DNA from: a virus
Length of the DNA: 64,000 nucleotides
Strand: one strand, 5' to 3'
UHGV virus genome: UHGV-0332176
Shown here in pieces: positions 10,881 to 26,923 of this stretch (the stretch's first letter is position 1; each line of letters opens with the position of its first letter). A model generated the notes under the pieces. The model did no database searches. It was not told the origin of the DNA and was given only the letters and a program-made list of their open reading frames with translations. Made by a program: the position numbers and the translations under genes.

Positions 10881-10909
10881 AAAAGAGAGGATTAATCCTC
10901 TCTTTTTTA
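10880..10909. terminator. Bidirectional terminator overlapping nrdD stop codon
   Basis: The inverted repeat AAGAGAGGAT-TA-ATCCTCTCTT is followed by TTTTT. Confidence 0.6.
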
Positions 10910-13045
10910 ACCGTGTAATGAATCATCAATAAATGTTCTACGTTGAAATTCCCAATTTCTTCTTGTTGGATTCCACGAATCAACGGGAACAAAGAAACCA
11001 ACAACACGAGTAAAATATTGCATATGTTCATTATGACCACATTTTGAACAACTTGCAACTTTATGGTCATAAACAGCACCGCATTTTGGACATTTTGAAT
11101 ATACTGAATTTAATACAAAATGTTCACAACCACATTTAATAGCATATAAAATAATTTTTCTATTTTGTGCAGATGTTGTTTTAGAACCCAATTGAGCGTG
11201 AACAATACCGCCACCTGTTAATAATTGATTATATTTGCCATCAGCTTCTAATTTTTCCCAAATAGTTGCATCTTCCCATAATGGAACAAATTGATTAGCA
11301 TATAATGGAGCATCAATAATATTTTCATTGAAAATTAAGTTATCAACAGTTGCTAATCTAACAGCATAAGATTCACCAGGAATTTGTTCAATATTAGAAA
11401 ATAAACCTAATTCTTTTGCATATTCAGCAGAATGTTTATTTAAATATACTAAATAATCATTCATAACATCTTGACCTTCAGTAATTTCATCTGCAAATTT
11501 AGTTTCAAGAATTTTCTTTGCTTCAACAACACCCAAAATACCAAATGTTGAAAATAATCTATCCATACGAATCCAGCCACGAGTAATAAATGGTTCAAGA
11601 CCTTTTTCTTCCATTTTACCAATTAATACTTTATGAGCTTTTAAAACTTTTGCTGCTCCACGAATTCTTTTATCAAGAATATGATAAAAATCCTCTAATG
11701 AATTTGCTTCATAAGCAATACGAGCAAAATTAATAGTTACAACACGGTGAGAACCCATTGAAACAGTTGAACCACCAAATGAATTTACAGAAGAACCCAT
11801 ATCAAGTAATTCAGCATCATTAATTAAACGACAACAAGATGCAACTTTTGTCCCCTTTGAAGTAAAAATATTAAATCTTGTAATATCTCGTTGACATACA
11901 AAATCAAAGAATTTTTCATCTAAAACATTACCTTCATCATCTTTTGATATATTCATAGTTGTAACAGGAAAACGATAAGGAATACCATTATTTAATGGGT
12001 CACCTTTTTCGTGAAATTTAGCATATATTTCTTGTAATTCACTAATATAATTAATGACAAATTCTTTCCATTCATCAGCAGACATCTTATCTTCTAAACC
12101 ATTATCAATAGCAATATCTTTTTTATTTGCAAAATACCATCCATAATTATCTTGACCTATTAAACCAGCTAATTTAACTCTATCAAATAAAGAAATATTA
12201 GTGAATGGAGATTCTACACCATTTCTTGATAAATGGTTTACTGAATGAACAAATGTTTGAAAACAATTTTCAATATATTTTCTCATTTTTGGGTCATTTT
12301 TAACAACTTCAAATGGAACACGTTGTTTATAAATTAAAATATGAGCAATATCAAGGAAAAATGTTCCAACAGCAATAGCACCTGCTAAATGTGAAGACAT
12401 TTGATGAACTGTTTCATCTAATGCTGAAATATAAGAATCAACTCTATGAACTGGTGCAGATGGTAATTGACCAAATTTACGACCTTCAAGAACTAATTTA
12501 GAAGCATCTAATGCCCAGCAGTAAGGAATTAAAATATTTGTAGAATCTGATAAACCTAATGAAAAATCATATAAATCACCTGATAATACTTTTGCTTCAG
12601 CTTGACCATATAAATCTTTCATAACACCATAAAGCATATGATAACCAATTAATTTACGGTTAGAAGCTGTAATTTCATTATTTACACCAGCAATTGTTTT
12701 TTCATTTTTATTAGAATTATCGTCAATAGATACATCATTAACACGAGAATCTAAAATTTTAGCAAAATTTGCCAAGGTATCAAAATTAGTTGCATCTAAT
12801 CCGTGAATTTTTAAAATTTTTGAAGTTAATTCTTTTAATTCACCATTTGAAAAACCATATTTCTTTTTCAATGCTGATGCTAATGTTTTTTTAATATTTT
12901 TAATAGTTCTTGTAGTTTCAGCATTAATTAAAATATCATCAGAAACTTTATCTAATTCTTTCTTAAAATCTTCATCTTCATAATAAGAATCAACAATTGT
13001 TGGACTCTTAACATTTAATATTTTTTTAACTGCCAATTCAGACAT
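10907..13045 (-). CDS. nrdD: Anaerobic ribonucleoside-triphosphate reductase (class III RNR)
   Basis: The C-terminal Zn ribbon CPKCG...CSKCG is followed by the glycyl-radical motif RVVGFF. The internal GGSTVSMGSHRVVTINFARIA aligns with T4 NrdD LGVVTLNLPRIA. Confidence 0.9.
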   Translation of the reverse strand: MSELAVKKILNVKSPTIVDSYYEDEDFKKELDKVSDDILINAETTRTIKNIKKTLASALKKKYGFSNGELKELTSKILKIHGLDATNFDTLANFAKILDSRVNDVSIDDNSNKNEKTIAGVNNEITASNRKLIGYHMLYGVMKDLYGQAEAKVLSGDLYDFSLGLSDSTNILIPYCWALDASKLVLEGRKFGQLPSAPVHRVDSYISALDETVHQMSSHLAGAIAVGTFFLDIAHILIYKQRVPFEVVKNDPKMRKYIENCFQTFVHSVNHLSRNGVESPFTNISLFDRVKLAGLIGQDNYGWYFANKKDIAIDNGLEDKMSADEWKEFVINYISELQEIYAKFHEKGDPLNNGIPYRFPVTTMNISKDDEGNVLDEKFFDFVCQRDITRFNIFTSKGTKVASCCRLINDAELLDMGSSVNSFGGSTVSMGSHRVVTINFARIAYEANSLEDFYHILDKRIRGAAKVLKAHKVLIGKMEEKGLEPFITRGWIRMDRLFSTFGILGVVEAKKILETKFADEITEGQDVMNDYLVYLNKHSAEYAKELGLFSNIEQIPGESYAVRLATVDNLIFNENIIDAPLYANQFVPLWEDATIWEKLEADGKYNQLLTGGGIVHAQLGSKTTSAQNRKIILYAIKCGCEHFVLNSVYSKCPKCGAVYDHKVASCSKCGHNEHMQYFTRVVGFFVPVDSWNPTRRNWEFQRRTFIDDSLHG

Positions 13046-18770: not shown

Positions 18771-19061
18771 ATGCTTAGTGCATTGCTGACTGTTTTATCT
18801 TTTTTTGTAATTTATTTGCTTATAGGAGTAATTGTTTTTGGATTTTTGTATGTTTATAGTGATACTGGTTCAGAATGGGATATTACTAATATAGATTGTG
18901 ATGAACAAATTTTGGTTTGGATATTATGGGTAGTATTTCTTATTATTTTTTTGTTTCAAAGAATTGGTAAACAATATATTAGATTATTAAAAAACATACG
19001 TAATGATGTATTAAAAAATAATAAAAATACATTGACAAATAAAAATAATGATATAAAATAA
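18771..19061 (+). CDS. Small membrane protein (2 TM), tandem paralogue 1
   Basis: An AAGGAG RBS is present. Hydrophobic helices and the motif YLLIGxVxFGxLYVYxD are shared with the next gene. Confidence 0.55.
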   Translation: MLSALLTVLSFFVIYLLIGVIVFGFLYVYSDTGSEWDITNIDCDEQILVWILWVVFLIIFLFQRIGKQYIRLLKNIRNDVLKNNKNTLTNKNNDIK

Positions 19062-19087: not shown

Positions 19088-19375
19088 TTGTTAAGTTTAA
19101 CATTTATTAAAAAGGAAAAGAAAATGATTACTGGTTCAACTGTTTTTAGTTATTTTTTGGTTTATCTGTTGATTGGTTTTGTTTTTTTGGGTATTTTGTA
19201 TGTTTATGGAGATAAGTTTGGGATGGATGAACTTTTCCATCAAGATTTAGAAAGAAATTTTTTTCTTTTTTGTATTTTATGGATATGTATATTTTTTGGT
19301 GTTAGTTATTATTTAATTAATAATTTTTTACTTTTTATATTAAAAAAATTGCGTGCATTAAGATTTAAAAATTGA
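19088..19375 (+). CDS. Small membrane protein (2 TM), tandem paralogue 2
   Basis: Shares the YLLIGFVFLGILYVYGD motif and a similar topology. Confidence 0.55.
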   Translation: MLSLTFIKKEKKMITGSTVFSYFLVYLLIGFVFLGILYVYGDKFGMDELFHQDLERNFFLFCILWICIFFGVSYYLINNFLLFILKKLRALRFKN

Positions 19376-20106: not shown

Positions 20107-20408
20107 AATTAAAAGATATGAAATTATCACAAATTCGTAAGTTATCTGAATGTTATTGGGTTCAGCATCCAATGCAGTTATATGGAACAAAAGAAACAAA
20201 TAATGCAAAGTATAATAATGCTGCTATATTTCAATTAAATAATGAAAATATATTATATGGAATGAAACATTTTATGTTATATGATGAAGACCATATATTT
20301 ACGACAATAGATGAAGCAATTAATTATTGTAAAGAATATGGTTGGAATTATAGCATTACAAAAAATTATAATTATAAAGGGGATATTGATAATGGTAAAA
20401 ATAATTGA
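20103..20408 (+). CDS. Hypothetical small protein (101 aa)
   Basis: ORF that overlaps the thyX start. Confidence 0.4.
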   Translation: MKLKDMKLSQIRKLSECYWVQHPMQLYGTKETNNAKYNNAAIFQLNNENILYGMKHFMLYDEDHIFTTIDEAINYCKEYGWNYSITKNYNYKGDIDNGKNN

Positions 20409-21108
20409 ACCACACGTTGAAGTTATTTCAGAAATTGATGGTGATAAAATTTTAAAGCAAATTGAAAGATGTGCAAGAAATTGTTATAAATCGGAAGGTA
20501 ATATTTCAGAAGATACAACATCTGCGGTGAAAATGATTAGTAAATTGATTGAATTAAATCATACGGCTATGATTGAATTTGCTGATATTATAGTTAATTT
20601 AATTTGCGATATTGGTGTTTATAAGGATTTAACAAGACATAGACATTGTAGCTTTGCTATTGAGAGCACTAGATATTGTAATTATTCTAAAGGGAAATTC
20701 GGTAATGAAATTTCGGTAATAAAACCTTGTAATATGGATGAAAATTCAGGAATTTATCATACTTGGCTTAAATCTATGACAGATATGGAAAAAGCATATA
20801 TGCAAATGGCAGAATTAGGAGCATTACCAGACCAATTAAGAATGGTTTTACCACATAGTTGTGCTGCATCAGTTATGATGAAAGCAAATATTAGAGAATG
20901 GCGACATATTTTTCAGCTTCGTTGTGCAAAACAAGCTCATCCATCTGTTCGTCAAATTATGTTATTAACTTTAAATGAATTTCATAATAAAATTCCTGTA
21001 TTATTTGATGATTTATTTTCGGAATATAAACAAGATATTATAGATACATATTCTAAATTAGAAACTAATTCTGAAACAGGTATTTTATATTCAAATTCAA
21101 ATTTATAA
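20392..21108 (+). CDS. thyX: Flavin-dependent thymidylate synthase
   Basis: Carries the ThyX signature TRHRHCSFAIESTRY (RHRxxSxxxxSxRY). The start was moved to the ATG at 20392, which follows an AAGGGG RBS. Confidence 0.85.
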   Translation: MVKIIEPHVEVISEIDGDKILKQIERCARNCYKSEGNISEDTTSAVKMISKLIELNHTAMIEFADIIVNLICDIGVYKDLTRHRHCSFAIESTRYCNYSKGKFGNEISVIKPCNMDENSGIYHTWLKSMTDMEKAYMQMAELGALPDQLRMVLPHSCAASVMMKANIREWRHIFQLRCAKQAHPSVRQIMLLTLNEFHNKIPVLFDDLFSEYKQDIIDTYSKLETNSETGILYSNSNL

Positions 21109-21114
21109 AACTTC

Positions 21115-21145
21115 TTGACAAATTATGAAACCTGTGTTATAAATA
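21115..21145 (+). promoter_or_regulatory. sigma70-like promoter (TTGACA-17-TATAAA) for rSAM operon; the -10 also reads TATAAATA
   Basis: CTTGACAAAT is at 21112-21123, and the -10 TATAAATA is at ~21138-21145 inside a hairpin loop. Confidence 0.5.
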
Positions 21146-21163
21146 TTCACAGGTTATTTTTTT
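21129..21163 (+). terminator. Terminator after thyX overlapping downstream promoter
   Basis: AACCTGTG-11 nt-CACAGGTT is followed by ATTTTTTT. Confidence 0.5.
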
Positions 21164-21173
21164 AGGATAAATT

Positions 21174-22517
21174 ATGAAATTTAATGAATATTTTAAGTTA
21201 AAAGATATAACAATTAATGTTACAAATTCTTGTAATTTAAATTGTGCTTATTGTTTTGAGCATAATAAAAATGGTTTAAAAATGTCAACTAATATGGTTG
21301 AGAAAATTATTGATAAAAGTTATGAAAATTATGTTTTAAATAATGAAACAAAATTTCCTTTTGTTGTTAATTTTTTTGGTGGAGAACCATTTTTAGCATT
21401 TGATGTAATGGAACACGCAATGAAATATGCCAATAATAAAAAATATAATATTTCATTTGGTGTAACAACAAATTTAACGATGCTTACAGACCATATGATT
21501 GATATTATTGAAGAATATGAATTGGGATTATTAGTGTCAGTTGATGGTATTAAAAAAATACACGATAGAAATCGTTGTAATTCTTATGACATTGTTATAT
21601 CTAATCTTAAAAAATTAATAGATAGAGGTTTAAAACATCTTATTGAAATTAGAATGACTGTTATGCCTGCTGATTTAAAAGATTTATTAAGTGGTATTCA
21701 AGAATTATATAATTTAGGAATTGATAATATTGCTCCTGTTCCTGTTACCGATACAAAATGGGAAGATTATGATTATATGAATTTAAGAGATGAAATGATT
21801 AAAATTTGGGAATGGGCATTTTTAATTTATAATGATGAAAACAATAAAAGAAATCTATCTATTAAATGTATAGATGATTATTTAGAAATGGTGTTATGCC
21901 CTGATATTTTATTACCTGAACAACGTAAAGTTTGTACAGCAGGAACATTTTCATCTTGTTCTTTTGGAGTTGATGGTGATATACTTCCTTGTCATCAACG
22001 TCATACAATTTCTGACCATTATGATGAATTAGTTATGGGTAATATTAATGATGATGAAATTAAAGAAATTAATTTTAATAATCAAACAATTGCTAACGAA
22101 AATAAAAATTGTGATGTATGTAATGCAAGAGCAATTTGTAAAGGGGGATGTCCATCTGAAAATTTAACATTGAATAAAGATGGAAATATTATGAATGATG
22201 TTCAATGTAATGTTTTAGAATATATGGTTGATGTTGCACAGCAATATCAATGGTGGCTTTTAAATGATATGTTACCTAATATTCGTTCTCGTAAATTAAA
22301 TATTTTAAGTCAAAATTTAAAATTATTAGGAATGTTATTAGATATTATTAAAAATGAAAGAAGTATTCAAGATAATGAAATTCAATTATTAAAATTTTAT
22401 GAAAAGTTATCTGATATTGAAGGAATACTTTTGCCTAATTTTAGAGATGCAATAAATTTTATAATTTATGGTATGGTAAATATTATTGATGAACAAATTA
22501 AAAATGAAGGTAAATGA
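21174..22517 (+). CDS. Radical SAM / SPASM-domain enzyme (maturase-like), paralogue 1
   Basis: The N-terminus has TNSCNLNCAYCFE (CxxxCxxC), and the C-terminal auxiliary-cluster region has CDVCNARAICKGGCPSE (SPASM-like). Confidence 0.8.
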   Translation: MKFNEYFKLKDITINVTNSCNLNCAYCFEHNKNGLKMSTNMVEKIIDKSYENYVLNNETKFPFVVNFFGGEPFLAFDVMEHAMKYANNKKYNISFGVTTNLTMLTDHMIDIIEEYELGLLVSVDGIKKIHDRNRCNSYDIVISNLKKLIDRGLKHLIEIRMTVMPADLKDLLSGIQELYNLGIDNIAPVPVTDTKWEDYDYMNLRDEMIKIWEWAFLIYNDENNKRNLSIKCIDDYLEMVLCPDILLPEQRKVCTAGTFSSCSFGVDGDILPCHQRHTISDHYDELVMGNINDDEIKEINFNNQTIANENKNCDVCNARAICKGGCPSENLTLNKDGNIMNDVQCNVLEYMVDVAQQYQWWLLNDMLPNIRSRKLNILSQNLKLLGMLLDIIKNERSIQDNEIQLLKFYEKLSDIEGILLPNFRDAINFIIYGMVNIIDEQIKNEGK

Positions 22518-23335
22518 TGGCTGATAGTAATATTGTTAATCGTCAAATATATCAAGATATTAGAGATACTTTTAAACAACGAGCAATGAATTGGAACGGT
22601 GTTTGGAAAGTTTGGAATAATCAATCTCCTGATTGGGGCGGACGTTGGGTTGGTGGTTGGAAAGGACCAGCAATTAAGATGCACGATACTATTCCTGAAT
22701 CAGAAAGGGATAGAATTCAAAAAGAATATACTGGTTTATCAGGTGAAGTTAATCAAGTTATTGTTGAAGAATCATCTAAAATTCATACATTAGGTAATGA
22801 AAATAATATTCGTAGAGCGGTTATTAGTTTAAATAATGTGACAGATGCAAATATCGGTGTTTATTTAGGAAGTCAAAAATTACCAAAAATTGAGATTAAC
22901 ACAATTGGAACAGCTGGAAATTTTAATCCTGATGTAAATATTGCTAATACATCTGATGATTATACTGTAAACAAATATAATACTTCATATGTTAGAGATA
23001 TACCAGCTAATAAAGTTGTTAATACAACAACAGGTCAAGAAATACCATTAAATTCTGTTATTACAAAAGATATTAATCAAAAAACTCAAATGGCAGGAAC
23101 ATCTGACCCAACTCAATCATCGCAAGCTGAAGGTATTGTTAAAAAATCAGATTATGAATTGATTAGAACAGTTTTAGAAAGAATCAAAGATTGTTTAATT
23201 CAAAAAAATTCTTGGTTTACTTATAATGGTATTTGTAGTCGTAGTTGTCAAATAAATTGCCAAAATAGATGTCAAGTTTCTTGTCAGGCTTGTAATACTA
23301 AACAATGTCACGACCAAAATTGTGGTACTTCATAG
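22514..23335 (+). CDS. Protein with cysteine-repeat C-terminal tail (candidate substrate of adjacent rSAM/SPASM enzymes)
   Basis: The start overlaps the upstream stop (ATGATGG). The C-terminus is CSRSCQINCQNRCQVSCQACNTKQCHDQNCGTS (8 Cys in 30 aa, CxxxC x4), and the body is Asn/Thr/Ser-rich. Confidence 0.6.
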   Translation: MMADSNIVNRQIYQDIRDTFKQRAMNWNGVWKVWNNQSPDWGGRWVGGWKGPAIKMHDTIPESERDRIQKEYTGLSGEVNQVIVEESSKIHTLGNENNIRRAVISLNNVTDANIGVYLGSQKLPKIEINTIGTAGNFNPDVNIANTSDDYTVNKYNTSYVRDIPANKVVNTTTGQEIPLNSVITKDINQKTQMAGTSDPTQSSQAEGIVKKSDYELIRTVLERIKDCLIQKNSWFTYNGICSRSCQINCQNRCQVSCQACNTKQCHDQNCGTS

Positions 23336-23347
23336 GATAAAAATTAA

Positions 23348-24550
23348 ATGGAAATGTATGAAAAAATCAAGAAATTGACTGTAAAGACTTTTTCTGGTTG
23401 TAATCTTAATTGTCAATATTGTCATCAATTAAATGATGATAAACATAAACCATTATCATTTACAAAATATGATGAATTATCACAATTTTTATTAACTATT
23501 CCGTTAGATGATAAAGTTATTGTTTCAATTGTTGGGGGAGAAGTATCTTTAAGACCAGATTTAATAGAAAATTTATATAAAAAATCTTTATTAAAAGTAT
23601 CAAGACAAAAAGATGTTCAATTTGAATGTGGAACAGTTACTAATGGAACAAATATTGATTATATTTTAGATTTATGTGATAGAGATATATTTAAGCCAAA
23701 ACATTGTGCATTTTCTTGGGATGGTTTGTATTCTGCTTCCTTATCTCGTAAATGTAATGGGTTATTTAATGATGAATTTTTTCAAAATGTTGTTAAAAAA
23801 ATTGGTAAGAGTAAACATAGAGATGATTTTACGATTGTTCACGCTATAACTCCAGAAACATTAGATTACTTATATGATAGTTTTAAATTTTGTATAGATA
23901 ATGGAGCAATTAATTTTGGTTATTATTTAATTCACGAAGGAAATTATAGTGATATAAACCTTCAAGAAAAATTTAAAAATCAAATTTATAAAATATATAA
24001 TTTGTATGTTGAAGAAGCAAATAAAGGAAATTATATTAATTTATTTAATTGGTTAAATATTACTTTAAGAAGACGTATTAATGAAGCCTTTTTTACGTGT
24101 GCCAAATTAGGTATAAATTATTATATTGACCCTGATGGTGATATATATCCGTGCATATATTTTGGTGACCATAGAGCATATAAATTTGGTAATATAAAAA
24201 CAGGAATTGATAAAAATATTCAAGATAAATTTATTGAAGATTATTATCATTATCCGCAATGTGAATTTAAAACTTGTAAATGTTACCAATGTAATGAATG
24301 TCCTGCATCTAATTATGTTCATAATGGAAATATGAATATGCGATTTAAAAATGGATGTGCATTATATCAAATTGAAAATCAAATTTATGATGAATTATCT
24401 AAAAAAATTATAAGACAAGATATTTATACATCTGAAGATAGAAATAGACATATATTTGATTTAAATAAATTTGTTGATTGCGAATTAGATATAACACAAA
24501 ATAGTTATCAATCTCCAAATTTAGAATTTGTTAGAAAATGGAGAAAATAA
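23348..24550 (+). CDS. Radical SAM / SPASM-domain enzyme, paralogue 2
   Basis: Has FSGCNLNCQYCHQ at the N-terminus, and a C-terminal Cys cluster CEFKTCKCYQCNECPAS. Confidence 0.8.
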   Translation: MEMYEKIKKLTVKTFSGCNLNCQYCHQLNDDKHKPLSFTKYDELSQFLLTIPLDDKVIVSIVGGEVSLRPDLIENLYKKSLLKVSRQKDVQFECGTVTNGTNIDYILDLCDRDIFKPKHCAFSWDGLYSASLSRKCNGLFNDEFFQNVVKKIGKSKHRDDFTIVHAITPETLDYLYDSFKFCIDNGAINFGYYLIHEGNYSDINLQEKFKNQIYKIYNLYVEEANKGNYINLFNWLNITLRRRINEAFFTCAKLGINYYIDPDGDIYPCIYFGDHRAYKFGNIKTGIDKNIQDKFIEDYYHYPQCEFKTCKCYQCNECPASNYVHNGNMNMRFKNGCALYQIENQIYDELSKKIIRQDIYTSEDRNRHIFDLNKFVDCELDITQNSYQSPNLEFVRKWRK

Positions 24551-25710
24551 TGGGAAATATTAAATTACCACCAATAATTACGCACGCTTATATTATGGTT
24601 ACTGAACAATGTAATTTACGTTGTCAATATTGTTATATTAAAAATAGGGATATTAAAAACGAATTTCCGTTTGAATGGATGGAAAAAGTTAAAAAAATGT
24701 TTACTTGTTACAATAAACCAAGAATAATATTTTTTGGTGGAGAACCATTATTAAAAGTTGAGTTAATTAAACAAATTGTTAATGAATATAAAAATGATTT
24801 TCAATTTCAAGTTGTAACAAATGGAACGATTAATTTTCATAAATTTATGGATGAAGTTTATGAACCAAATAAAACAAATTTTGATGTACAAATATCGTGG
24901 GATGGTAATGTTGATACTCGGAAAACGTATAATGGAAATATAACTAATTTAACTGTTTATGATAATATTATATCAGAATTAAATAAAGGAAGAATTTTAG
25001 TTGGAAGATGTGTTTTAAATGAAGAATCAGTAAAAAATTTTTATAATACATACCAAACATTTAAAAAATTAAATAAAGAATATAAATTTGGTGCAGATTT
25101 TACGATTGCTCATCAGCCATTATTTCAAGAAACATTTTTTAGTGATTTAATAAATGAGCTTCAAAAAATATATCAAGATATACAAATAGATTTAAAAAAT
25201 AATCAACATTTATATATTCCCAATCTTTTATTAAAAACAATTACAAATATTTTAGAAAATGAACCTGTTATTTCTTGTGATGTTGGGTCATATGTTGTTT
25301 TAAAACCAAATGGTGATGTTTATCCGTGTACAATTTTATCACAACAAGATGAAAGATTTAAATTAGGTAATATTAATGAAACTGTTGATACAGAATTAAT
25401 TAATGATTTACGATATAAATCATCTTGTAAAAAAGAATGTCCATTTAAAGCCATTTGTGATGGTGGTTGCAGATATGAAAGAATTATTAATTATCCACAA
25501 ACTTGGTGTACTGATATATGTTCACATACTTGTAAAATTTATGAGGGAATTTATAATGAAACAATAAATTTTTTAAATATGTTATCAAAAGAAGAAACAA
25601 CGAAGTTATATGAAATATTAACACAATATAATATTTGGAGTATAAATTACCGAAATAATAATCATAATAGAATAGATAATCAAGATAGATTAACAAATAT
25701 AAAGATATAA
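24538..25710 (+). CDS. Radical SAM / SPASM-domain enzyme, paralogue 3
   Basis: Has TEQCNLRCQYCYI and a C-terminal CKKECPFKAICDGGCRYE. It overlaps the previous gene by 13 nt. Confidence 0.8.
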   Translation: MEKIMGNIKLPPIITHAYIMVTEQCNLRCQYCYIKNRDIKNEFPFEWMEKVKKMFTCYNKPRIIFFGGEPLLKVELIKQIVNEYKNDFQFQVVTNGTINFHKFMDEVYEPNKTNFDVQISWDGNVDTRKTYNGNITNLTVYDNIISELNKGRILVGRCVLNEESVKNFYNTYQTFKKLNKEYKFGADFTIAHQPLFQETFFSDLINELQKIYQDIQIDLKNNQHLYIPNLLLKTITNILENEPVISCDVGSYVVLKPNGDVYPCTILSQQDERFKLGNINETVDTELINDLRYKSSCKKECPFKAICDGGCRYERIINYPQTWCTDICSHTCKIYEGIYNETINFLNMLSKEETTKLYEILTQYNIWSINYRNNNHNRIDNQDRLTNIKI

Positions 25711-25736
25711 ATATTTGTATTATAAAGGAAGTAAAA

Positions 25737-26882
25737 ATGTTATTATTTATGCCTGAAAGAATTTATGAATATTTTAAAAATGATGAAATTTTAAATGAAA
25801 AACTTGAAAAAGTTAGATTATTATTATTAAATCCAGAACATCATTATGATTTAAAAGATTTATTAAAAATGAATAATGAAATGTTTACAGATGTTCATCA
25901 ATATTTGCTTGAAAAAGTGCCAGAAGATTTGAAAGAAGAAATGAAAATTTGTTCTGACAATCATAAAGGTGGGTCAGACAAATATATGATTAATTTTGAT
26001 AATTATGATGATGAAACAAAAATATTTTTATTGTATATTTACAATAATGGGGATATGAGTCCAAATGATGCATTATATGATAGATATAATAAAATTGAAC
26101 AAATTTATGAAAAAAATGAAATGCAAAATTTTTCGCCATTTATTCATACAATTTATTATTTTGTTAAATTATTTTTGCATTGGGTTAATAATGAAAATAT
26201 AAAATATGTTAATGAAAATGGATTTTTCCCTTATGAAAATATTAAAAAATTTTTAAGTTTTGAAGAAGATTTATATAATAAAATATTACTAAAATGTAAT
26301 ACTGAACAATTTTTTCATATTTTATTTCATAAACGTATACAAATGATGTTTATGTTTATGCTTTTTATTGGTCAATTTAGTGATAATTTTGATAAAGTCG
26401 TTGATGATATAGTTAGACGTGTTTATAATAATAGATTTAAATATGATAATTTTAATTATTTAAAAATTGCTATTAATCATATTTTTTTTCAAACATATTT
26501 TGATAAAGGGAATTTTATTAAAGCTAAAAAATATTTAATGTATAATATTTCAATTATTAATTATGGATTTTCACATAAATTTGAAATGGTAAAAGCATTA
26601 AATCATTTTAATAAAATTTTTAATAGAGAATTTTGTAATTATTTGTTTTTCTTATATACAATGATACGAGTTTATATTCCAAAATTACAAAAAGAATTTA
26701 ATATTTTAAATTGTCCTGATGCAACAGAATTTGAAAAACGATTATTATTTGGAAAATTTAATGATGATGAAAAAAATTTAGGTATAGATACAAATCCAAA
26801 TGAATGGTTATCTTTTAAATGGTGTCAGAATAATAAAGTATCATTTGATTATTTTAATCAAATAGTTGACAAGATAAATTAA
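25737..26882 (+). CDS. Hypothetical protein (381 aa), last gene of rSAM operon
   Basis: ORF that is followed by a strong terminator. Confidence 0.5.
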   Translation: MLLFMPERIYEYFKNDEILNEKLEKVRLLLLNPEHHYDLKDLLKMNNEMFTDVHQYLLEKVPEDLKEEMKICSDNHKGGSDKYMINFDNYDDETKIFLLYIYNNGDMSPNDALYDRYNKIEQIYEKNEMQNFSPFIHTIYYFVKLFLHWVNNENIKYVNENGFFPYENIKKFLSFEEDLYNKILLKCNTEQFFHILFHKRIQMMFMFMLFIGQFSDNFDKVVDDIVRRVYNNRFKYDNFNYLKIAINHIFFQTYFDKGNFIKAKKYLMYNISIINYGFSHKFEMVKALNHFNKIFNREFCNYLFFLYTMIRVYIPKLQKEFNILNCPDATEFEKRLLFGKFNDDEKNLGIDTNPNEWLSFKWCQNNKVSFDYFNQIVDKIN

Positions 26883-26889
26883 ATATGCT

Positions 26890-26923
26890 AAAATCTCCAT
26901 AATTATAATTATGGAGATTTTTT
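26890..26923 (+). terminator. Intrinsic terminator
   Basis: Perfect palindrome AAATCTCCATAATTAT/AATTATGGAGATTT followed by TTTT. Confidence 0.6.

Follow-up and report, generated by a model that had tools for sequence, protein, structure and literature searches.

Thioether bonds are introduced by radical-SAM (rSAM)/SPASM enzymes in several described systems. The clostridial ranthipeptide precursor SCIFF is a free peptide of ~45 aa, with its leader bound by the N-terminal RRE of the maturase CteB (ScfB) and a thioether linking Cys32 to Thr37 (PMC8326336); going by the reference list of that paper, a connection of SCIFF-derived peptides with quorum sensing has been proposed. PapB generates several thioether rings on a repeat motif, and freyrasin contains six beta-thioether bridges connecting Cys to Asp (PMC8326336). 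QhpD is a precedent for joining Cys to Asp or Glu carbons within a protein that is kept as a functional subunit, while in NxxcA the acceptor Asn precedes the donor Cys by three residues, as N-x-x-C (PMC8326336).

The phage locus described here was found in a stretch of DNA of 64,000 nt, referred to below as the window. It has in common with SCIFF and its maturase a CQxxCQxxC core and a substrate gene that adjoins a maturase gene. The phage motif, however, is fused to the C-terminus of proteins of 70-950 aa and contains eight Cys rather than six, with an additional CH-x-Q-x-CG end, while the single RRE-bearing maturase is replaced by three to five phage-encoded maturases without an RRE, together with a TPR-like accessory. 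The freyrasin repeat is C-x3-D, whereas the phage tail lacks an Asp at that distance and conserves Gln as the neighbour instead. QhpD, the second-best NCBIfam match for the first enzyme of the locus, likewise acts on a protein that is not released, but it is a single maturase and its substrate is the enzyme (gamma) subunit of quinohemoprotein amine dehydrogenase, not a phage protein. The NxxcB/NxxcA system (Cys-Asn beta-thioether) is likened to the tail by spacing alone, which is that of the repeated Q-x-x-C; it has one bridge, on a short streptococcal peptide, and an Asn acceptor where the phage tail has Gln. Cys-x3 periodicity is also common to the tail and the CXXX-repeat rSAM target systems (TIGR04114, TIGR04115, TIGR04117, TIGR04119); CXXX-repeat maturase models match the second enzyme, g3, weakly (55 and 41 bits, far below cutoffs).

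Layout and putative transcription signals

The original prediction placed five genes between a promoter and a strong terminator. ORFs were confirmed for all five, each on the + strand of the window, and are listed here with the elements around and within them.

21116..21145, + strand: promoter-like element TTGACA-N17-TATAAATA 5' of g1, from direct sequence reading; a presumed promoter
21129..21162, + strand: 8-bp hairpin and T7 run after ThyX (RNA fold dG -10.4 kcal/mol, z = -2.8; weak evidence)
21174..22517, + strand: g1, rSAM/SPASM enzyme of group A (c0), 447 aa (Pfam Radical_SAM 62.4 bits, SPASM 24.6 bits)
22514..23335, + strand: g2, carrier with Cys-rich C-terminal module, presumed substrate, 273 aa (14 homologues, 121 profile hits)
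22781..22813, + strand: conserved N-terminal block IHTLGNENNIRR, g2 residues 90-100 (invariant alignment columns; T4-like clade only)
23144..23233, + strand: amphipathic helix and W-F/W-D-x-N-G turn before the tail, g2 residues 211-240 (conserved pattern)
23234..23332, + strand: SCIFF-like eight-Cys tail, g2 residues 241-273 (position profile, 131 unique tails)
23348..24550, + strand: g3, rSAM/SPASM enzyme of group B (c1), 400 aa (Pfam Radical_SAM 40.3 bits, SPASM 23.9 bits)
24538..25710, + strand: g4, rSAM/SPASM enzyme of group C (c2), 390 aa (Pfam Radical_SAM 40.6 bits, SPASM 28.3 bits)
25706..25713, + strand: second TATAAATA element, 24 nt 5' of the g5 start codon
25737..26882, + strand: g5, TPR-like all-alpha conserved accessory, 381 aa (predicted structure)
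26890..26923, + strand: intrinsic-terminator-like hairpin, 14-bp stem, then a U6 run (dG -15.1 kcal/mol, z = -6.1)

The g1 and g2 genes overlap by 4 nt and g3 and g4 by 13 nt, while gaps of 12 nt and 26 nt separate g2 from g3 and g4 from g5. Consensus scanning did not bear out the flanking signals, giving 89 promoter-like sites where 88.5 are expected by chance and failing to find a terminator where the operon ends, but direct reading shows the promoter-like element upstream of g1 and, downstream of g5, the terminator-like hairpin and U6 run, which closes the five-gene unit and was equalled in stability by 0/200 shuffles. The hairpin after ThyX overlaps the upstream element. The TATAAATA part of that element fits the T4 late-promoter consensus; the sequence is rarer than chance in the window (18 observed, 32.5 expected), with about eight copies lying 20-40 nt 5' of start codons. 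Elements of this T4-late type precede g1, g5 and the terminase large-subunit gene, which points to late expression.

NrdD is encoded in the window, as had been claimed, at 10907-13045(-). Within the T4-like clade the neighbours of the cassette are DNA-metabolism genes (ThyX, ligase, NrdD) rather than the tail module, and ThyX lies next to the cassette throughout that clade but not in others. The phages that carry the cassette look lytic and T4-like.

Enzymes and accessory protein

As originally proposed, g1, g3 and g4 belong to the Radical SAM superfamily and carry a SPASM domain, all three scoring above both Pfam gathering thresholds (PF04055, 29.5 bits; PF13186, 21.5 bits). The expected CNLxCxYC occupies residues 20-27 in g1, 18-25 in g3 and 25-32 in g4, and its CxxxCxxC triad is 96-100% conserved within each orthologous group (56-77 unique orthologues per group). 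The hallmark of SPASM domains is a C-terminal seven-Cys motif that ligates two auxiliary [4Fe-4S] clusters. Beyond Cys 20/24/27, the conserved Cys of g1 form such a motif (C254, C273, C313-x2-C316-x5-C322-x3-C326, C345), while the conserved Cys number three plus seven in g3 and three plus six in g4, the six at 85% or more. Pairwise identity among the enzymes is 22-25%. The claim of three paralogues therefore stands for three rSAM/SPASM enzymes but not for recent paralogy, as on sequence comparison they are separate, ancient orthologous groups.

The top-scoring NCBIfam model for all three is PapB (NF047865; g1 192, g3 91.8 and g4 101.9 bits), with its 330 positions covered nearly end to end, although all stay far below the equivalog cutoff of 340 bits. 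Scores also fall far below the cutoffs of the models for ScfB/CteB (TIGR03974; g1 123, g3 54, g4 56 bits; cutoff 425), QhpD (TIGR03906; g1 133.6 bits; cutoff 453) and anSME (TIGR03942; g1 87, g3 29, g4 59 bits; cutoff 349), and the anSME, DynA, YhhB and GrrM models match the enzymes weakly. The nearest families, PapB, CteB/ScfB and QhpD, are thus thioether-forming, with no curated family cutoff reached. An anSME identity is disfavoured by the ranking for g1 (PapB 192 > QhpD 134 > ScfB 123 > anSME 87 bits) and by structure, as CteB (5wgg) is the nearest solved structure to g1 (E = 8e-27, CteB residues 96-444) against E = 1.5e-11 for anSME in the PDB; no sulfatase, the expected partner with a C/S-x-P-x-R motif, was seen among the annotated neighbours, for which part of the window ORFs was scanned. 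Because the alignment begins at CteB residue 96, which pairs with g1 residue 9, and the g1 rSAM motif begins at residue 20, g1 lacks an RRE, in agreement with the original prediction.

The g5 family is divergent and nearly without invariant residues. Its predicted model is confident and TPR-like, and the nearest structures are the peptide-binding receptors Rap, NprR, AimR and PlcR, a likeness that is generic at ~8% identity. Those RRNPP receptors combine TPRs with an N-terminal HTH or phosphatase effector, whereas no HTH, phosphatase or other Pfam domain was detected in g5, which shares the fold class only and was not assigned to them.

The tail module, its carriers and the cassette

The C-terminus of g2 reads CSRSCQINCQNRCQVSCQACNTKQCHDQNCGTS, the Cys-rich end that had been noted. 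Searches of Pfam, NCBIfam and PHROG gave no match to g2, and fold searches returned nothing informative. The AF2 model (mean pLDDT 60.8) has confident helices at residues 10-35, 93-113 and 211-229; neither the tail nor the central part of the protein is modelled with confidence. The IHTLGNENNIRR block is also found in a 747-aa protein (L004). Ahead of the tail, the pattern L-x2-I-x3-L…W-x-D-x-N is conserved over 30 diverse tails, making the helix and turn a candidate recognition or oligomerisation element.

The tail follows the pattern C-x3-CQ-x2-CQ-x2-CQ-x2-CQ-x-C-x4-CH-x-Q-x-CG-x2-end. Its eight Cys are invariant among 15 full-length g2 homologues. Of 131 unique tails, 107 space them identically, and across the 131 the Gln that follow Cys 2-5 are conserved at 89-98% and the His that follows Cys 7 at 100%. 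The module, ~33 residues long, is strictly C-terminal on its carriers of 70-950 aa, and a search of 1.84 billion representative proteins with its profile gave 121 hits, most of which align at the C-terminus alone. Judged from these hits, the module is portable and occurs on a wide variety of carriers. Against the tail HMM, SCIFF reaches 21.1 bits, a score matched by 0/500 shuffles, so the resemblance depends on residue order. Tail Cys 1-4 and 6 pair with five of the six SCIFF Cys, and the acceptor Thr37 falls on an invariant tail Gln. The SCIFF precursor model (TIGR03973, six Cys in 45) describes a stand-alone peptide of ~45 aa scoring at least 50 bits; g2 has 273 aa, the window tail did not match at E ≤ 10, and the highest score in the family was 8.4 bits. 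An expanded-repeat tail matches TIGR04117 (E = 0.016), while the window tail gave no hit. The system had been called undescribed, and we found no description of it or of the tail module in Pfam, NCBIfam, PHROGs, GenBank phages or the searched literature.

The adjacency of tail and rSAM genes holds among relatives. Across 90 fetched tail-bearing loci, representing 51 distinct tails, an rSAM gene adjoins the tail gene in 90/90; a same-strand g1-type rSAM lies immediately 5' of the tail gene in all but one, where the contig ends upstream of the tail gene, and one to four more rSAM/SPASM genes usually lie downstream. Together with the Cys conservation, this linkage goes far past what chance would give. 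Representative loci contain group A in 22/22 cases, group B in 19/22 and group C in 17/22, with the orthologous groups c0, c1, c2 and c7 stable between clades, and the g5 family is present in 67/91 loci. The cassette is found in large uncultured phages, with three to five rSAM enzymes and a helical-repeat helper around a Cys-tailed protein; from its recurrence in these genomes, the five-gene unit, including g5, is a widespread cassette. Some relatives have a fourth rSAM, and on one contig a shorter tail goes with fewer rSAMs.

Where domains could be recognised, the carriers are tail, fibre or carbohydrate-binding proteins. Every functionally annotated PHROG match is of the tail class, and the Pfam matches are Gly_rich_2, CBM_5_12 and F5/8-type C. 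In other clades tail-fibre-like genes lie directly upstream. No fibre domain was recognised in the g2 of the window by Pfam or PHROG, and short carriers showed no homology to neighbouring fibre genes. We put the assignment of the carriers to virion fibres at just short of an even chance. Among the products originally suggested, a virion or fibre protein is favoured by the carrier domains and the upstream fibre-like genes, while no evidence was found for a toxin or an anti-defence factor.

Proposed pathway and alternatives

The conserved cassette, with a tail resembling a cross-linked bacterial peptide, therefore probably reflects thioether stapling of fibre-type protein tips. We regard the g2 tail as the likely enzyme substrate and lean slightly towards thioethers as the bonds formed. 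Our preferred reading, held with modest confidence, is a phage cassette for post-translational protein cross-linking, in which several enzymes would introduce thioether staples into a cap at the C-terminus of virion fibre proteins. The original idea, that rSAM/SPASM enzymes modify the Cys-rich end of a complete phage protein, is in this respect largely supported by the sequence comparisons, from which we infer the modification itself. The sequence outcomes named beforehand as contradicting it did not occur: the enzymes fit rSAM/SPASM models, anSME matches them much more weakly than thioether-forming families do, and homologues of the tail protein always adjoin an rSAM gene.

In the proposed pathway the substrate would be the last ~33 residues of g2, an eight-Cys module following the amphipathic helix. 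The g1 enzyme, the invariant and translationally coupled partner, would modify the tail first, followed by g3 and g4. Cleavage of SAM at the CxxxCxxC cluster of each enzyme would give a 5'-deoxyadenosyl radical. This radical would remove hydrogen from the side chain of an acceptor residue, whose carbon would then be joined to a Cys sulfur held at a SPASM auxiliary cluster, on the model of CteB, PapB and QhpD. The likeliest acceptors are the near-invariant Gln after Cys 2-5, with a topology of either Cys(i)->Gln(i+5), compare SCIFF Cys32->Thr37, or Gln(i)<-Cys(i+3), compare NxxcA. The TPR-like solenoid of g5 probably holds the unfolded tail, or the helix before it, for enzymes that have no RRE. 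The result would be a C-terminal cap or inter-chain lock, resistant to reduction and to proteases, on virion proteins of tail-fibre or adhesin type that are synthesised late in infection.

The likeness of the tail to the SCIFF core and of the enzymes to RiPP maturases would also suit a released RiPP, with the N-terminal part of g2 as leader and the ~33-residue tail cut off as a free ranthipeptide or sactipeptide acting as bacteriocin or signal. The nearest structures to g5 sense peptides, so that g5 might be the TPR receptor, as in RRNPP or arbitrium systems, and the connection of SCIFF-derived peptides with quorum sensing, taken from the reference list of PMC8326336, would agree with this. 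RiPPs are generally defined by a short leader-core precursor and proteolytic release, and g2 is a full-length protein. Against release, no protease or exporter was conserved or seen among the cassette genes. The 'leader' would be 70-950 aa long and highly variable, with folded adhesion-type domains, and the 'core' near-invariant, the opposite of what RiPPs usually show. Given also the lack of a detected effector domain in g5 and the lytic, T4-like appearance of the phages, we consider release unlikely.

Another chemistry on the same tail, such as formylglycine formation (anSME-like), epimerisation, C-C or C-O cross-links or methylation, is suggested by scores below all equivalog cutoffs, by the weak matches to anSME, DynA, YhhB and GrrM, and by the three to five distinct enzymes, which could imply several chemistries. 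It is nevertheless improbable, as thioether-forming families and CteB consistently give the strongest matches, no sulfatase context was seen among annotated neighbours, and eight invariant Cys, each with a conserved following residue, suit donor/acceptor pairs. Those Cys and the one invariant His could instead ligate metals, making the tail a metal- or Fe-S-binding module and its carrier a redox partner or scaffold, with enzymes that act on, for example, nucleotides or DNA. However, C-x3-C repeats with an invariant Gln do not figure among known Fe-S motifs, and the carriers have adhesion or fibre domains. The neighbouring NrdD and the ThyX adjoining the cassette in the T4-like clade would fit such a role, but ThyX adjacency is missing in other clades. 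There is a precedent for an rSAM enzyme in phage DNA hypermodification; that enzyme is spore-photoproduct-lyase-like, not SPASM-type, and is partnered by 5-hmdU kinase and aGPT-Pplase genes (PMC8989533), neither of which was seen in the cassettes. We consider this explanation very improbable.

Returning to stapling of the tail, it is tentatively possible that large phages of anaerobic, host-associated habitats use multi-enzyme machinery of their own, derived from SCIFF/ScfB, to weld the portable tail module of fibre proteins or adhesins into a knot of several thioethers. If so, the knot possibly locks the chains of one fibre together, and would be a disulfide-like stabiliser that can form in a reducing cytoplasm and endure in reducing, protease-rich surroundings. 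Stapling of phage proteins by rSAM enzymes has so far not been described; if true, the carrier would be the first viral structural protein cross-linked by rSAM enzymes, and this would hint at a function for the enigmatic SCIFF motif.

Operon layout and the three radical SAM enzymes

The five open reading frames that the original prediction placed in one operon were all found, with overlaps of 4 nt between g1 and g2 and 13 nt between g3 and g4, and the predicted cysteine-rich end of g2 was read directly in its translation. The features are:

21174-22517 (+): g1, radical SAM (rSAM)/SPASM enzyme
22514-23335 (+): g2, 273-aa carrier and presumed substrate; its last ~33 residues, the tail, hold eight cysteines
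23348-24550 (+): g3, rSAM/SPASM enzyme
24538-25710 (+): g4, rSAM/SPASM enzyme
25737-26882 (+): g5, TPR-like all-alpha accessory
5' of g1: promoter-like TTGACA-N17-TATAAATA
3' of g5: 14-bp hairpin followed by U6 (dG -15.1 kcal/mol, z = -6.1)

The flanking promoter and terminator, which had also been proposed, gained nothing from a scan for σ70 promoters and terminators, which was uninformative at chance-level output in 24% GC DNA and missed both elements; direct reading does show the promoter-like element and the hairpin. TATAAATA is rarer than expected in the window (18 observed, 32.5 expected), and about 8 of the 18 copies are correctly oriented and sit 20-40 nt 5' of a start codon, among them copies ahead of g1, g5 and the terminase gene. 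This placement suggests late expression from promoters of the T4 type. The window is very AT-rich (GC ~24%) and encodes T4-like functions (tail sheath, terminase, virion structural protein, gp13-type neck adaptor, NrdD, helicase, polynucleotide kinase, ThyX and an NAD-dependent DNA ligase); no tRNAs were found in it. The ThyX frame (20311-21108, 265 aa as listed) overlaps the preceding one; its Pfam match begins at residue 49 and its orthologues are 213-260 aa long, and a true start inside the frame, near MVKIIEP, is therefore probable. Two adjacent small frames at 18771-19061 and 19088-19375 (96 and 95 aa) have in common the motif …YLLIG…F…LYVY.D and look like paralogous membrane proteins.

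All three enzymes pass the Pfam gathering scores for Radical_SAM and SPASM, and the CxxxCxxC triad is retained in each, along with 6-7 SPASM cysteines, across the 56-77 unique orthologues of its group, those of g1 following the canonical pattern (C254, C273, C313-x2-C316-x5-C322-x3-C326, C345). Identity among the three is 22-25%. In each case the NCBIfam model for PapB, a ranthipeptide maturase, scores highest (g1 192, g3 92 and g4 102 bits), followed for g1 by QhpD, a ScfB-related model and the maturase of SCIFF, the six-cysteine clostridial peptide cross-linked by ScfB/CteB; all these scores lie far under the curated cutoffs, with lower ones again for anSME. The nearest solved structure to g1 is CteB (5wgg, E = 8e-27), which carries an N-terminal leader-binding domain, or RRE (PMC8326336). 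The g1 alignment begins at CteB residue 96, and g1 therefore lacks an RRE of the CteB type. Some relatives have g1-type or g3-type genes of 744-798 aa because these contain inteins (L007 5615-8011 and 9096-11330, L010 5633-7999), as called from precomputed Pfam matches to Intein_splicing, LAGLIDADG_3 and Hint.

A C-terminal cysteine module and its gene neighbourhood

Eight cysteines and the N-terminal block IHTLGNENNIRR are invariant among the 14 homologues of g2. Searching 1.84 billion representative proteins with a profile returned 121 matches, most of them confined to the last 60-100 positions and lying at the C-terminus of proteins of 70-950 aa. The spacing C-x3-C-x3-C-x3-C-x3-C-x2-C-x4-CH-x3-CG is exact in 107 of 131 unique tails, and only 2-4 residues follow the last cysteine in 96 of those 107. 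Across the 131, glutamine follows cysteines 2, 3, 4 and 5 (97%, 98%, 89% and 98%), histidine follows cysteine 7 (100%) and glycine cysteine 8 (98%), with free variation between the conserved positions. Judged by its sequence the tail is a portable module, and it was not found in Pfam, NCBIfam or PHROGs.

Variants of the tail occur. Two family members, P0115 and P0121, have expanded CQxx repeats with 10-11 cysteines in the last 45 residues, and P0121 also gives a sub-threshold match to an HK97-fold major capsid model (E = 0.005). Two tail-bearing proteins stand in one cassette of locus L042 (2747-4312 and 5512-6123), a 521-aa protein whose degenerate tail has the last two cysteines replaced (…CQDCQYYTAHNQNSGGWV) and a 203-aa protein whose tail is intact. 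One g2 relative, 747 aa long and interrupted by glycine-rich insertions (L004 4050-6293, IMG/VR 3300028591_000257), has a tail cut to three cysteines, …CQRSCQINCQTSVQKS, with a real stop codon, and adjoins a g1-type rSAM only. It belongs to a short-tail subfamily of at least 9 protein clusters, from which this one contig was fetched. The idea that shorter tails go with fewer rSAM genes was dropped, as scans of IMG/VR and metagenomes yielded nothing beyond that 59-kb phage and a fragment.

Linkage to the enzymes is close. In the fetched tail-bearing loci (n = 90, 51 distinct tails) the tail gene is immediately preceded, on the same strand, by a g1-type rSAM gene (412-495 aa); the sole exception is a contig truncated upstream of the tail gene. 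The two genes are separated by -19 to +434 nt and mostly overlap, and usually 1-4 more rSAM/SPASM genes follow downstream. Clustering gave stable orthologous groups:

Table. rSAM gene clusters in 22 representative loci.
c0, g1-type: 22/22
c1, g3-type: 19/22
c2, g4-type: 17/22
c7, fourth rSAM type without a window member: 6/22

The most remote of the full-length g2 homologues, L005, has a cassette of g1 and g2 only, which marks these as the core pair. In IMG/VR, 113 tail loci were confirmed, many of them on contigs 130-287 kb long. T4-like phages show the order gp13 … ThyX - rSAM - tail - rSAMs - g5 - ligase, and a second kind of cassette phage encodes its own RNA polymerase beta subunit. The cassette is conserved and widespread among phages. 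Among deposited sequences g2 is closest to an unannotated protein of Myoviridae sp. ctWb16, and no description of the cassette was found in the literature searched. Mobile elements also enter these loci, an HNH homing endonuclease (cluster c8) lying between the tail gene and the downstream rSAM genes in several (for example L074 7150-8049) and an IS605-type TnpB gene on the opposite strand inside the L006 cassette (11776-12978).

GTDB genomes scanned at the DNA level for a degenerate (CQxx)4 pattern gave, among the matches listed, tandem-repeat DNA in chance frames bar one 5-kb contig. Alone among the 120 cellular matches listed, this contig (CALISH010000122.1, a Solobacterium sp. MAG) carries a true tail module, identical to a viral type (that of L038) and adjoined by a g1-type rSAM. 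Either a phage contig was mis-binned here, or the match points weakly to an oral Erysipelotrichaceae bacterium as host.

An iterative HMM for g5 converged on 99 proteins, spread over 67 of 91 loci, some cassettes having two copies. Members of the family have diverged strongly (12-19% identity between clades, almost no invariant residues), and no annotation for it was found anywhere we looked. From its predicted structure we read g5 as a putative peptide-binding scaffold, which is an assignment of fold class only and not of family membership.

Carrier proteins and the likeness to SCIFF

To describe the carriers we scanned 130 tail-family members against Pfam and PHROG. Pfam returned Gly_rich_2 (8), the ALK/LTK glycine-rich domain (2), CBM_5_12 (3) and F5/8-type C (3), and the functionally annotated PHROG matches were all tail-class: tail protein (9), tail fibre assembly (5), tail fibre protein (3) and minor tail protein (3). 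In other clades tail-fibre-like genes stand directly 5' of the cassette (L043, E = 8e-17 and 2e-8). No homology was found that would make the short carriers kin of these upstream genes. Counting against a fibre reading, the cassette in the window lies amid DNA-metabolism genes. Also against it, no domain can be recognised in the g2 of the window; the AF2 model of this protein is poor except for three helices, with the tail too poorly modelled for interpretation, and fold searches gave no matches in the PDB and a single unannotated, 90%-identical protein in BFVD. On large viral contigs, two genes for YadA-like trimeric autotransporter adhesins with stalk and membrane anchor domains lie just 3' of a cassette (L017 8316-9827 and 9882-11681).

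Genuine SCIFF sequences for comparison were taken from GenBank gut 'Bacteriophage sp.' contigs with canonical SCIFF-ScfB pairs. The precursors (L217 4492-4635 and L219 1020-1160; MT835472 and MT835702) adjoin ScfB-type maturases, on contigs that are labelled 'UNVERIFIED Bacteriophage sp.' and may be phage, prophage or bacterial contamination. They score 21.1 and 17.3 bits against the tail HMM, while shuffling the cysteine-rich core gave -0.7 ± 4.2 bits (maximum 12.0), with 0 of 500 shuffles as high as observed. SCIFF C24, C28, C32, C36 and C43 align with tail cysteines 1-4 and 6, and Thr37 falls on the conserved glutamine after cysteine 4. Thr37 is one of two acceptor positions reported for SCIFF Cys32 (PMC8326336). 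By analogy, this alignment suggests a Cys(i)->Gln(i+5) topology for the tail cross-links; the alternative would be Q-x-x-C, as in NxxcA, where Asn20 is joined to Cys23.

Models for the cassette and their meaning

The best-supported model is one in which several RRE-independent rSAM enzymes would staple a SCIFF-like C-terminal cap by thioethers onto fibre-type phage proteins, assisted by g5 as a TPR-like chaperone. Its rivals are that the tail is released as a RiPP, that it undergoes a different rSAM chemistry, or that it binds metal. Two other roles were rejected. The phage rSAM known from DNA or thymidine hypermodification is of the spore-photoproduct-lyase type, and its partner genes did not turn up in the cassettes; for anti-defence, PADLOC shows only generic rSAM-core similarity to viperins. 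The T4-like phages of Campylobacter, with their 11-12 rSAM genes (PMC2853527), do not share the system either: around the rSAM genes of phage vB_CjeM_WX1 there is no homologue of the tail or of g5 (HMM scores close to zero). Three genes 5' of an rSAM/SPASM gene in that phage, a 130-aa hypothetical protein (L213 5482-5871) ends in …KCDHESCGCKDSKGI, a faint echo of the tail's CH[DN]Q-x-CG with no significant similarity to the tail HMM.

Nearly all known rSAM/SPASM maturases make small bacterial peptides, QhpD being, to our knowledge, the one well-known case with a protein substrate. If thioether stapling is correct, this chemistry would reach into virus assembly and act on the C-termini of full-length, probably structural proteins. 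The cassette would then join the HK97 capsid chainmail as a form of covalent virion reinforcement, and would offer protein engineering a compact, genetically encodable "thioether cap". It also gives a concrete, testable handle on the abundance of radical SAM genes in large phages, noted as unexplained in Campylobacter phages (PMC2853527), and may help to explain what the enigmatic SCIFF peptides do.
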